Source: Rhabdochlamydiaceae bacterium
GTDB lineage: Bacteria > Chlamydiota > Chlamydiia > Chlamydiales > Rhabdochlamydiaceae
Length of the DNA stretch: 64,000 bases
NCBI GenBank assembly: GCA_047459655.1
Contig: JAJREF010000003.1
Location: 128,001 to 192,000 of the forward strand
Reading direction: 5' to 3'
In this document: piece after piece, positions 6,657 through 53,080 of the stretch
How positions within the stretch are numbered: position 1 is the first letter of the stretch
How the letters are laid out: each line of letters begins with the position of its first letter
Program-made: the position numbers and the translations under genes
The notes under the pieces: generated by a model
The model's input: only the letters and a program-made list of their open reading frames with translations
The model's database searches: none
Told to the model about the DNA's origin: nothing

Positions 6657-6742
6657 AGAGGTAGTTGCAAAACTCAGGTTCAGTCAAATTTCGGGTTCTT
6701 TTGAACCGATTTTCGACGAACCCTGAGTTTACAACTACCTCT
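6657..6742. repeat. Palindromic element (short member of family A)
   Basis: Imperfect inverted arms AGAGGTAGTTGCAAAACTCAGGTTC / GAACCCTGAGTTTACAACTACCTCT. It shares a 35/47 ungapped match with the 52956-53080 element. Confidence 0.8.
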
Positions 6743-35241: not shown

Positions 35242-35404
35242 TAGACCTCTTCGAAATTCTAATGCTCTTGGATTTGAGTTCTTTTTTCGCTAGTTGGAAG
35301 ATCGATTTGTGGGTCATATTGGGTTAATATGACCCACAAATCGATCTTCCAACTAGCGGAAAATAATCTCAAATACAGGCCATTAGAATTTCGAAAGAGG
35401 TCTA
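35242..35404. repeat. Long palindromic element (family A), 163 bp
   Basis: Termini TAGACCTCTT...AAGAGGTCTA. Perfect 33-bp central stem (35288-35320 / 35326-35358) with a 5-nt loop. Confidence 0.92.
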
Positions 35405-43029: not shown

Positions 43030-46000
43030 TTATTTCAATACGCTGCAGGTGATTTTTTCGAGTTCTTGGGGTGTAGTAATTTTTTTAAGAGAATGGGTTT
43101 CTTTGAGAAGCTCTTTGCCCTGGTGCTTTTCTGTAGAAAGGGTGTAAGTGCCGAACTTGAGGAGGGTGTATCGCTTTTGTGAGGCTAAGAGGCGGATGCG
43201 GGCGAGGTGGTAGAGCCAAAGGACAGGGGGAGGGGGCGTCCCGAATCGGTCTTTGAGTTCATCTAAGATGTCATCAATTTCTTGGAGGGTTGAGACTTCT
43301 CCGAGGCGGTGGTAGATTTCAAGGCGGAGGGAGGTTTCCGGAAGGTAGGTGTCAGGGAGGCGGGCGTCATAGGGGAATTCCATTTTAGTCTCATGGAAGG
43401 AGGGGTCTTTGTGGTGCTGAAGAGCTGCCACGGTGCGTTTTAACAGTTTGCAGTAGAGATGGAATCCGATGGAGGCGATGTGGCCTGACTGTTGGATGCC
43501 GAGGATGTCGCCAGCTCCGCGCATTTCTAGATCGCGCAGAGCAATCTTCATGCCACCGCCGTAACCTTGTGACTCTACGAGCGCGTGGAGACGTTTTAAG
43601 GAGTGCTCTGTGAGGGTTTTTCCCTTGGGGGTAAGGAAGTATGTATAGGCAGGTCGATTCCATCTGCCGACTCTGCCACGGAGTTGGTAGAGGTCTGCGA
43701 TGCCAAATTGGTCGGCTCTATCGATGAGGATCGTATTGGCATTCGGGATGTCGATCCCATTTTCAATGATCGTTGTAGAGAGAAGGATATCTGCTTCTCC
43801 TGATTTAAAAGCATGGAATACGGTATCTAGTTCGTCTGCTGACATCTGTCCATGACCTATGACAATTTTGGCTTCCGGCAAGAGTTTTTTCAGATCTTCT
43901 CCTATTTGGTGGATCGATTCGACTCTGTTGTGAATAAAAAACGCTTGTCCATCACGAGATAGTTCTCTGACAAGGGCATTTTGAATGACGCCGGGGTCTC
44001 GTTCTGCAATGATGCTTTTGATGGGAAGGCGATCTTGTGGTGGAGTGCTGATGATGGAGATTTCACGGGCCCCCACAAGAGAGAGGTAAAGCGTACGGGG
44101 TATGGGTGTTGCTGTGAGTGTGATGCAGTCAACACCCGTCTTAAGGGTTTTGAGGTGTTCTTTTGCTCTGACGCCAAAGCGTTGCTCTTCATCAATGATG
44201 ATAAGGCCTAGATTTTGGAAGGAGACATCTTTGCTGATGATTCGATGAGTGCCAACAAGGATATCGACTTTGCCCTCTGCTGTCATCTTAATGGTGTCTT
44301 TGATTTCCTTAGGTGTTTGAAAGCGAGAAAGGACGCGGATAATGAGAGGGTAATTGGTTAGTCTTTCACAAAAAGTTTCAAAGTGTTGGAGGGCAAGTAC
44401 AGTTGTTGGAACAAGGACTGCAACTTGTTTTTTTCCTTCATAGGCAGCTTTAAAGGCTGCTCTTATGGCTACTTCTGTTTTCCCATAGCCAACATCTCCA
44501 CAGATGAGGCGGTCCATTGCCTTAGAAGATTCCATATCTTTTTTAATGGCAGATATGGCTTGGAGTTGATCTTCTGTTTCGACATAGGGGAAATCTGCTT
44601 CGAACTGCTCCATGTCAATGGTGTCGGGGGGGTAAGAAAATCCTCCATGGAGGGTTCTTTCGGCGCTAAGGCGGAGGAGATCTTGAGCATAACCGATGAT
44701 AGCGGTGTGGGCTTTTGCTTTTGTGTTTTGCCAATTTTTTGTTCCCAGCGTATGGAGTGAAGGGATCTCTTCATGCGCTCCAATGTACCTGCTGACAAGG
44801 TAAGATTGCGCAATTGGTACAAAGAGTTTGCTTTTCTCTGCATACTCAAGCACTAGGAATTCTGTTTCGCTACCTGTGTGGTTTTTTTGCTTTTCGATGC
44901 CAAGATATTTCCCAATACCATGTTGAAAATGGACAATCAGATCTCCGGGAATAAGTTCATGGAAGTCAGAGGCTGGCGTGTGGTGGGTAGAGCGCCATTT
45001 TTCCCTCCTCACTTTATAGCGGTGAGTGAACTCAGTCATCGGGATTATCAAGGTGTTGCTGTCTGCAAGCGCAAAGCCAGAGGAGAGGTACCCTCTTTCA
45101 AATAGCGCTCCTTTTGGAAGGGCGATTTTTTCTTGGAGAGATTTTTCTTCCGATTCGGTTGCACAAACAAAGTGTATATCAAGGTTAAGTGTTCGGTTTA
45201 GTGCTCTGTCAGCCTTTAAATGAGGAATTGGATCGCGCGAAAGCTCCCGGGATTGAGTTGTCGAAGAGGGTGGGTGTATTCCGTCAATACTACCTCCCTC
45301 TTCGACAATCTCAATCTCGGGGCTTTGGCGCAGATTCAATCCCTCATTTAAAGGCTGACAGAGCACTAGATTAGGCAGGTAGCCCTGGACGGGAAGGAAG
45401 GGATGTTTCCACCTTTTGGAGGTGATGGTTCTCTTGAAGATCTCAAAGGTAAGGGGTTGGAGAGGGTTTTTACCGGAATAAAAGTCTCTCCCGACTTTTT
45501 CAGAGATTTGGATGTCGGTAAGATCGCTTAAAGGTTCTTTTGTCCAATAGAGGCACTGCTTTTTTTCAGCCATTTTTAAGAGATCCTCAAAGAGGAGAAA
45601 AAACTTGGAGGAGGAGAGTTTTTGTAGGGCAATCGATCTATCTTCAAGCGCGAGTAAGTCATCGAATATGAGTAGGGTATCTTCTGGCATGAATGAAAGG
45701 AGTGTGGAGAGATGGGGCTCTTTTTTTAGAAGTTCTAGTTCTCCTGCAGGTGATAAAAAAGGGAAGAGACTTTGCCTGTCGATTTTTGTCCAATCGGATC
45801 AAAAGTGCGGATCGACTCGAGGGTGTCTCCAAAGAAATCGAGTCTATAAGGATCGGTAGAGGCAAGAGGAAATACGTCGATAATACCGCCGCGCACAGCA
45901 AATTCCCCTTTATCTGCGACAACGGGGCTTCGTTTATACCCGAGGGTGGATAAGAGATCAGGAAGGGAAGAGAAGGGGAGAGTATCTCCTATTTTCCAAG

Positions 46001-46400
46001 TGTGTAAGAGAGGCTTTAGGGTGTTAGGAGAGAGGGTTTTTTGGAGTATGGCTTGTAGCGAGGTGAGCAAAATTGTAGGGGAGTTTGTCGAGAGAAGATG
46101 GTGGAGAATCTGAAACCGTTTTCCTACGATATCGGGGCTGGGGACGATCTCTTCCCCAGGGAGCGTTTCCCACGAGGGAAAATCAGAAACATCTGTGAGC
46201 TCAAAATAAGGGCAGTCGTCTAGAATCTTACTCTCTCGAGATTCTGCCGTGATCAAGAGAACACTTTTTTTGTAGCGCTTGCAATCAACTGGAGAAGGGC
46301 TGCTTTGGGAGCATCCCATAGGCCTTCAATCACAAGAGAGTGTTCTTGTGGGATCAGGGTGCTGAGTTTTTCAAGAGAAGGGCTATTAAATAGCTTGCAC
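43030..46400 (-). CDS. mfd: Transcription-repair coupling factor (5' frameshifts, start approximate; carries an in-frame 56-aa palindromic insertion)
   Basis: [62 protein letters not shown]. Confidence 0.95.
45199..45368. mobile_element. Palindromic MITE/RPE-like element inserted in frame in mfd (family B)
   Basis: 27-bp perfect terminal inverted repeat TAGTGCTCTGTCAGCCTTTAAATGAGG. The whole element folds back on itself, and the flanking TA(G) copies are 168 bp apart. Confidence 0.9.
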
Positions 46401-52013: not shown

Positions 52014-52971
52014 TGGAGGATTTATTTTTAAGCGCGCTTAGATGTGAAAATACCCATCGACCACCTGTTTGGTTCATGCGGCAAGCAGGGCGTTTTCTCC
52101 CAGAGTATAGGAAAATGCGGCAGTTGCATTCCCTGAGCGATCTTTTTCATACACCTCACCTTGCTGCGCAAGTTACACGACTTCCCATAGATATTCTTCA
52201 TGTCGATGCAGCTATTTTATTTTCTGATATTTTAGTCATAACAGAAGTGTTTGGATACGAAGTTGTTTTTCCTTTAAAGGGAGGGGTCGAGATGCGTCCT
52301 CCTGCAAGTAAAACACGTTTAAATACACGAGAAACACTGCACTATGTAGACTCCACCATTCGGCTTTTGAAGCCAACTTTAAAAGTTCCTTTGATCGGAT
52401 TTTGCGGAGGCCCTTATACCGTTGCAAAATATATGGGACAAATCAACCACCCGATGTTAGAGCAAATCACTGAAGCAACGATTGAATATTTATTCATGCA
52501 GATTAAAGCGGGTGTGGATGCCCTTCAGATTTTTGACTCTTGGGCAGGGCTATTAGAGCCTGAGTCTTTTACTTCTTTAGCAATGCCTTATTTGCAAAAA
52601 ATTGTAGAGGCTGTGCGCCCTACAGGTATTCCAGTGATTCTTTTTCTAGAGGGTCGTGCAAGTTTAAAAAAGAACTGATCTCTCTCAACCCGCAGGCAAT
52701 TAGTTTTGATTGGGAGGAGGAGATTTCCTCCCTGCGGAAGCAAACACCTTCCCACATTGCTATCCAGGGGAACCTTAACCCCGATATTTTTAAAGGATCT
52801 CCGGTGCAATTAGAAAGTAAGGTTCTAGAAATTTTAGAATCGATGGAAGGGGAAAAAGGTTTTATTTTTAACTTAGGCCACGGAGTTCTTCCAGAGACAC
52901 CCGTGGAAAATGCTCTTTTGACCGTAAATACAGTATTAAAATTTAAGAAATACGGTAGACCTCTTGCATAA
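52013..52971 (+). CDS. hemE: Uroporphyrinogen decarboxylase (frameshift ~52650)
   Basis: PVWFMRQAGR, AAILFSDIL, IGFCGGP.T, QIFDSW, IQGNL, FIFNLGHG. Confidence 0.93.
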
Positions 52972-53080
52972 TTAAGATTCTATCGATTTTATTGTTCTTT
53001 TGAGCCGATTTCTCATTGGAATGGGAAATCGACCAAAATAATCAATAAAATCGACGAATCCTTAATGCGCAAGAGGTCTA
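52956..53080. repeat. Palindromic element (family A), 125 bp, overlapping the 3' end of hemE
   Basis: Termini TAGACCTCTTGC...GCAAGAGGTCTA; internal arms TCGATTTTATTG / CAATAAAATCGA and CGATTTCTCATT / AATGGGAAATCG. Confidence 0.9.

Follow-up and report, generated by a model that had tools for sequence, protein, structure and literature searches.

A palindromic element with IS630-type ends inserted in frame in the mfd gene of a Rhabdochlamydiaceae bacterium

The mfd gene of a Rhabdochlamydiaceae bacterium harbors a short fold-back element that, judging from its sequence, would be an IS630-related MITE: it has terminal repeats with IS630-type ends, is flanked by a duplicated TA, and has dispersed copies. 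An IS630 transposase, supplied in trans, likely placed this gene-less element at a TA of mfd. Our comparisons also support the existence of a mobile palindromic repeat superfamily in this lineage. Throughout, coordinates are counted from the first letter of the window, the whole 64,000-nt stretch of DNA that was analysed, and "mfd element" refers to positions 45199..45368. The present genome, which is 82% complete, is designated G000; other G-numbers denote other genomes, and L-numbers denote loci.

Anatomy and setting of the mfd element

As originally predicted, the mfd element is a 170-bp fold-back with 27-bp perfect terminal inverted repeats. Both TA copies included, it spans 170 nt, of which 166 bp lie between these two copies of the target duplication (45199..45200 and 45367..45368). 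Its arms of about 80 bp are alike at only 86% and form a single long hairpin (-78.1 kcal/mol, z = -17.3), the stability of which was equaled by none of 200 shuffled sequences. The left IS630-type terminal repeat (45199..45230, + strand) agrees at 24 of 32 bases with the left end of an IS630 element at locus L098, and the right one (45337..45368, - strand) agrees with the same end at 25 of 32. Between them lies a hairpin core of about 105 bp (45231..45336), common to differently ended subfamilies, with conserved asymmetric CAAAG and GAAAGCT boxes and a GTATT-n5-AATAC apex. The element holds no transposase gene; neither it nor its peptide matched Pfam or NCBIfam, and a search of Rfam returned nothing at gathering score, with one chance match at E 0.69.

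The host gene is encoded on the - strand. Its main ORF (43030..45690, 886 aa) was named Mfd by NCBIfam TIGR00580 (892 bits, cut-off 800), and a frame break at about 45755-45760, within a run of T, separates it from an N-terminal ORF of 194 aa (45735..46319, - strand). Together, the 166 bp and one TA make 168 bp, which amounts to the 56 stop-free, in-frame codons that had been claimed (45202..45369, - strand; residues 109-164 of the 886-aa ORF). When we aligned Mfd orthologues, the anticipated 56-aa gap fell at a co-linear empty site in the two closest sequences, those of G001 (same genus) and G011 (same family). Where the window reads GYLP-NL-[56]-NR-TL-NLDI, G001 reads GLLP-TI-DR-SP-NLI and G011 reads GYLP-TL-DR-SP-HLDI. 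No insert of comparable size was found in the Mfd segments of 27 other relatives that were aligned. At the nucleotide level, the empty site of G011 reads TTAG, and the window's own target is TTAG on the + strand and CTAA on the coding strand; the duplication is therefore TA within a YTAR site. The opposite strand is also open, as predicted (ORF 45189-45374, + strand), but the mirror peptide that it would encode is a mere by-product of the inverted repeat.

Within the protein, solved Mfd structures can be aligned from E. coli residue 429 onwards, and the insertion point precedes that aligned part by about 90 residues, in a region that we take to be the poorly conserved domain 3. Relatives' Mfd sequences differ by indels around this site. 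In an AlphaFold model of Mfd built from a 27-row alignment, the flanks were confident and the insert was an unstructured, low-confidence excursion; this low confidence arises because there are no aligned rows there, and so it does not in itself prove disorder. A single-sequence AlphaFold run was useless (pLDDT 33.7).

The assembly gives some reason for caution, because it contains many homopolymer frame breaks and because none of the listed contigs spans the whole mfd element. In addition to the break in mfd, there are breaks in alaS at about 48590 and about 46965, all of them in homopolymer runs, and the assembly probably carries many long-read indel errors. The break in mfd lies upstream of the insert, the same split product occurs on two contigs, and no contig among those compared covers it. 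It is probably a homopolymer error, and because its homopolymer context is common to the two alaS breaks, we infer that mfd is intact in the organism. Contigs from run X1, which may be the source sample of the assembly, cover the left junction (44600-45235) with zero differences and the apex plus right junction (45280-45488) with one 1-base gap outside the element, leaving 45236-45279 uncovered; contigs from runs X2-X4 (shares under 0.2) cover short pieces only. An assembly or long-read fold-back artefact, the error that could have undone the original prediction, is contradicted by the imperfect arms, the homologues in independent genomes, the exact empty site, and the presence of both junctions in X1. 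We regard it as extremely improbable.

IS630 ends, related hairpins, and the assortment of ends and core

The candidate mobilizer of the mfd element was found at L098:1404-2638 in G005, a genome of the same family. This locus, 1 among 19 IS630 loci of relatives that were inspected for their ends, spans 1,235 bp and encodes an IS630 transposase interrupted by a frameshift (NF033545, 134.9 and 61.3 bits; DDE_3 and HTH_32 domains). It begins TAGTGCTCTGTCA, as does the mfd element, and the first 13 bases of the two are identical. That 13-mer end was present in 49 of the 401 genomes of the class with up to 56 copies per genome, compared with at most one per genome for a reversed control, and some of the single matches are chance occurrences within genes. 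It was absent from all 30 genomes of family f16. In G005 and G137, the 13-mer delimits simple deletion derivatives of 79-100 bp; it also marks the start of an IS630 in G137 and delimits hairpins of 164-168 bp in G008, G085, G093, G104, G178, G218, G342, and G361. Full copies with mfd-type ends number at least four in G008, and there are more in seven further genomes. The transposase with the same termini that the original prediction called for therefore exists in a relative but was not found in G000, where tblastn detected no L098-type IS630 (in a genome 82% complete) and the five NF033545 matches correspond to the HTH of another IS. Likewise, there was no IS630 match in the element-rich genomes G001, G011, G018, and G026. 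The IS630 transposase of G000 was presumably lost, left unassembled, or a visitor.

Three other insertion sequences have recently been amplified in G000 (C1:58307-59773, C1:300810-302297, and C1:101538-103347, with 10, 7, and 2 near-identical copies), and the first of these has unusually long direct repeats. We rejected them as mobilizers, given that their ends (TGT, CC, and CAG) differ from those of the mfd element.

Under the reading that we favor, the terminal repeats of about 30 bp would be bound by an IS630 transposase, which, acting in trans, likely placed the element in what would be a variable loop of Mfd. Together with the duplicated TA, the element happens to be stop-free over 168 bp. 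Such a length, combined with such a loop, suggests that the insertion was tolerated rather than selected. The insert would then be translated and would be neutral for the host.

The mfd element has many relatives within G000. The exact element is single-copy there (one full match and three weak partial matches), a correction to the original prediction, but the same genome holds 229 related intervals. These were recovered from a local inverted-repeat scan that yielded 83 hairpins, of which those of up to 210 nt served as seeds after two unrelated ones were removed. The family covers 30,837 bp (1.9% of the genome) in about 24 subfamilies, defined as clusters, and 112 of its intervals are at least 150 bp long; a few of the 229 are counted twice, since contig C4:3262-14749 largely duplicates C1:652364-663858 (99.6%). 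Full-length copies measure 160-170 bp, with a short apical stem capped by a 5-nt loop. Most are intergenic, many adjoin gene ends, and both orientations occur. The window itself contains an intergenic sister element of subfamily F8 (35242..35404) with IS5/RPE1-type ends TAGACCTCTT(T)CGAAA, an internally deleted intergenic sister of subfamily F10 (52956..53080) with ends TAGACCTCTTGC, and a short intergenic element of subfamily F5 (6657..6742). The target duplication is TA in the mfd type, F8, and F10, 3 bp in F2, F4, F9, and F12, 4 bp in F3, and 4-6 bp in F1 and F6. In F3, the largest subfamily in G000, copies occur in head-to-tail tandems, and the 18 terminal bases are those of a 1,182-bp element (L546:145-1326, or G000:C3:6644-7825) that was assigned to the IS5 family by eye from its ORF. 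A deleted copy of this IS5-type element at G000:C3:54545 likewise has ends in common with F3.

Other repeats and mobile elements were encountered along the way. Two identical ORF-less group II introns, L543 (G000:C3:40896-41593) and L544 (G000:C5:319175-319872), were identified by Rfam (RF02001, RF01998). Each interrupts a hairpin element in one of its arms. L545 (G000:C1:699634-701565) is a third copy and has a reverse-transcriptase-like ORF. Presumably, these introns are of group II class C, and they may use the hairpins as targets. Hairpin repeats unrelated to the family were seen at L002:1373-1474 (CACAGAG-rich), L004:685-786 (GGGCAC-rich), and L070:842-1102 (a 261-bp type in G026).

Outside G000, cores that are 82-83% identical and show the same asymmetries occur in other genomes, and the asymmetric boxes and apex mismatch are kept across genera. 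A covariance model, R1, matched 17 of 31 genomes with at most 92 candidates scored per genome: G000, 12 of 18 from the same family, and 4 of 12 from other families. In four Rickettsiales genomes that hold RPE1-type ends, R1 had no match, while it found one site in a chlamydial genome searched alongside. A full-length set of 99 distinct copies was assembled from 60 stretches out of the best 150 R1 matches together with earlier loci, leaving out four loci with unclear ends. When 23 elements from six genomes were aligned, the invariant columns were interior (CAAA, ATA, TTT) and the outer 30 bp were variable. Two-sided change was seen in 64 of 73 pairs, a value reached by none of 500 shuffles and by no slid control, though the figure is inflated by relatedness and by the alignment-derived structure.

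Covariation of this strength, in copies that are mostly intergenic and often at gene ends, might be taken to mean that the element acts mainly as RNA, with a structure conserved for service as an mRNA stabilizer, RNase III site, or terminator. Effects of this kind are described for NEMIS and ERIC in PMC2229807. Yet G-T and A-C mismatches occur in similar numbers (156 vs 143) without strand bias, and therefore the symmetry appears to be maintained at the DNA level. Along with the lack of an Rfam match and the occurrence of both orientations, this renders a primary role as RNA highly improbable. An RNA effect may be a by-product.

The ends and the core of these elements behave as separate modules, a feature that the original prediction missed, as it did the IS630 nature of the ends. 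Relative to the mfd element, the G085 element has similar ends (0.75) and a dissimilar core (0.46), while G018_a has dissimilar ends (0.44-0.50) and a similar core (0.78); by this comparison of sequences, ends and core assort independently. The corresponding values for G093 are 0.78-0.81 for the ends and 0.82 for the core. This element, L370, comes from another family, and the close likeness of both its parts (0.78-0.82) suggests transfer between families. Element length stays at 160-170 bp irrespective of the ends, whereas duplication length tracks the end type (2, 3, 4, or 5-6 bp), as DDE transposases predict. The simplest reading is that each subfamily would have been moved by a transposase matching its ends. 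A plain MITE is expected to retain its ends and lose its interior. The conservation across families of core motifs and arm mismatches goes beyond what terminal recognition explains and counts against a plain MITE. It could reflect avoidance of perfect palindromes, arm-to-arm repair, or a binding protein.

A different way to account for such a core is to regard it as the selfish unit, copied as single-stranded DNA by a structure-specific enzyme (HUH/Y1, REPIN-like) or by host repair, with the IS ends as later additions or preferred insertion partners. It is the core that holds the invariant positions and whose boxes and apex mismatch persist from genus to genus, and it is enclosed in a constant length whatever the ends; some RPE1-type-ended elements in other phyla also enclose apparent REP-like dimers. 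However, the Y1 transposase (PF01797) is absent from four of the five element-rich genomes, G000 included, and the Y1 genes of the fifth look like IS200/IS605 or RAYT types that are not bounded by the element. Since duplication length follows end type in the manner of DDE transposases, we consider a selfish core unlikely and IS630-mediated insertion the better account of the mfd copy.

In-frame copies and Rickettsia palindromic elements

Rickettsia palindromic elements (RPEs) were reportedly described by Ogata in 2000 and 2002. The original prediction held that an equivalent, protein-invading repeat family exists in this chlamydial lineage. The part of this claim that survives is a mobile palindromic superfamily with repeated in-frame landings in real genes. 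As with RPEs, these are stable hairpins repeated in the genome, and three proteins that have empty orthologues carry copies in frame: Mfd, one AsmA-like protein, and one GT4 glycosyltransferase. The equivalence itself did not hold up, for reasons that have to do with frequency, peptide, and core.

In-frame copies are rare. Among the 229 intervals in G000, only the mfd copy is both mid-gene and open. Four others (C1:92530, C5:54555, C1:568906, and C2:109378) appear to be mid-gene and frame-breaking, calls that were made by eye from flanking translations only. Among the 99 full-length copies, at most four are in frame mid-gene: two verified, one likely, and one possible. Both verified copies are in G001, in the AsmA-like protein of 1,409 aa and the GT4 glycosyltransferase, the orthologues of which are empty in G000 and G002. 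The likely copy is in G008, where it was judged against a neighboring paralogue, and the possible one is in G004. Three further candidates (L259, L249, and L278) were set aside because the overlap appears to fall in ORF extensions that precede the true start. The verified copies in Mfd, AsmA-like, and GT4 proteins are read in three different frames, and the frame in which Mfd reads its copy is open in just 8 of 95 copies.

Protein searches with the peptide returned 4, 19, and 36 matches among metagenome proteins, where several long repetitive matches in the set of 36 are possibly false. Among the matches inspected, the peptide lay inside domains of RecD-, PcrA-, RecB-, OppA-, and glutamine-amidotransferase-like proteins. 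Four hosts of in-frame copies are helicases: the RecD-, PcrA-, and RecB-like proteins (P0005, P0011, and P0045) and the Mfd of the window. A comparable trend towards helicases is noted for intragenic REPs in PMC3733652. In-frame landings of these elements are recurrent but rare, and are probably tolerated accidents rather than a coding program.

The comparison with RPEs points the same way. Based on PMC10969869, PMC3733652, PMC1779305, and PMC2229807, the mfd element resembles RPEs in its long hairpin, terminal inverted repeats, and TA ends, and in having entered a conserved protein in frame in an intracellular bacterium. In those sources, RPEs measure 105-146 bp, compared with 166 bp and IS630-type ends for the mfd element, and nearly half of the copies of coding RPE families are placed in coding regions (PMC10969869). 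Here, the coding share is a few percent, several frames are used, and neither peptide nor core matches. Specifically, the peptide matched no NCBIfam family, RPE domains included, on either strand at E up to 1, under conditions where a control, L188, matched TIGR01045. For a family shaped for translation and kept for a conserved added peptide, one can cite the multiple-of-three length of 168 bp, the verified insertions, and the similar peptides in other proteins. With so few copies in frame or open in the Mfd frame, three frames in use, no RPE or Pfam model match, and R1 without a match in the four Rickettsiales genomes, we find this quite improbable. By peptide, core, or coding share, the mfd element is not an RPE.

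Our results do reveal a link between RPE1 and some of the sister elements. The end pattern of F8 and F10 was found in at least 121 stretches (L101-L221); their interiors are unrelated, and the records that they come from include chlamydiae, Rickettsiales, and cyanobacteria, among others. One of these stretches, L188, proved to be a true RPE1, located in a histidine kinase (TIGR01045, 69.8 bits), and the terminal 13-16 bases of F8 and F10 are common to it. The same RPE1-type ends flank a 924-bp element of the IS5 family (NF033581) at L402:1293-2216. A scan of viral contigs for RPE1-type left ends gave 120 loci, with the full 924-bp insertion sequence on one contig. Homologues of this IS5 element were present in three of five genomes examined directly and in 11 of 61 relatives, and their readable ends are of TAGAC/G-C/T-TCTT-T/G-C types. 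Both ends could be read in L496 (Rickettsia), L497 (Wolbachia), L498 (Rickettsiales), and seven chlamydial loci (L508, L509, L510, L519, L520, L526, and L532). The IS5-family (NF033581) transposase was not found in G000 or in G409, the genome of L188. Although transposase-based mobility of RPEs is described as lacking experimental support in PMC2229807, the matching ends make this IS5-family element a candidate transposase source for RPE1, F8, and F10. The mfd element is part of the IS630-ended branch and not of this RPE1-IS5 branch.

The RPE1-type-ended elements (L101-L221) cluster at lengths of about 113, 125, 136, 146, 156, and 166 bp, which is near helical spacing. Over these 121 elements, the best period was 10.4 bp (R 0.45), with none of 2000 uniform draws as high; after collapse to 52 clusters, it was 10.7 bp (R 0.31, p 0.12), so that helical phasing of lengths is suggestive only. 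Several RPE1-type-ended elements enclose short tandem repeats or what we take to be REP-like dimers.

A more general account, for which the case is tentative and somewhat short of even, is that these elements are modular parasites of parasites. Here, a core of fixed length would repeatedly acquire the ends of active insertion sequences (IS630, two kinds of IS5, and others), and fold-back repair would then transfer the new end to the opposite arm. RPE1 would be a member of this class through its IS5-family (NF033581) ends, and lengths might be set by helical phasing. If true, the missing transposase of RPEs would be named, and RPE1, the chlamydial hairpins, and the same-ended cyanobacterial elements would come under one testable mechanism.

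Other repeat systems and significance

Several known systems share features with the mfd element. RUP of Streptococcus pneumoniae is likewise non-autonomous, with a TA duplication and ends matching those of IS630-Spn1, and its mobilization is inferred from that end match (PMC2229807). Yet, according to the same source, RUP measures 107 bp, occurs between genes, and has no open frame, whereas the mfd element is a near-perfect hairpin with 80-bp arms and a core common to IS5-ended subfamilies. ERIC/IRU (127 bp) and Correia/NEMIS (107 and 155 bp), compared by description, are TA-flanked stem-loop MITEs that are mostly intergenic and sometimes fused in frame (PMC2229807). YPAL/RU-2 of Yersinia, at about 168 bp, is palindromic with a 56-codon frame able to fuse, but by its description there it is without TA ends and makes duplications of 3-26 bp, compared with TA ends and a 2-bp duplication for the mfd element (PMC2229807). 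REPINs, or REP dimers, with their RAYT have a long conserved hairpin and fixed mismatches (PMC3733652); mfd-type elements differ in having target duplications and IS-type ends and in flanking no tyrosine transposase.

Within the freely available full-text literature, we found no report of such a family in Chlamydiota or of the link between RPE ends and IS5. The string "chlamyd" is absent from PMC10969869, PMC11602168, and PMC3184786, and "MITE" and "palindrom" are absent from PMC9723776. The supplement of PMC11602168, which covers MITEs of 183,232 genomes, may already list these elements.

On its own, the insertion in mfd is a modest example of something already known; the exchangeable ends and the candidate transposase for RPE1 are what allow an open question to be tested. 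In three cases, namely the mfd element, the largest subfamily in G000, and a genuine RPE1, there is a specific insertion sequence whose ends correspond, and the question of RPE-type mobility is therefore open to a plate assay. A common core with exchangeable ends departs from the concept of a MITE as the deleted copy of one transposon. Furthermore, the low in-frame rate documented here offers a natural reference against which the high rate of Rickettsia can be set. Insertions of this kind lengthen predicted chlamydial proteins, and they do so unflagged by annotation.
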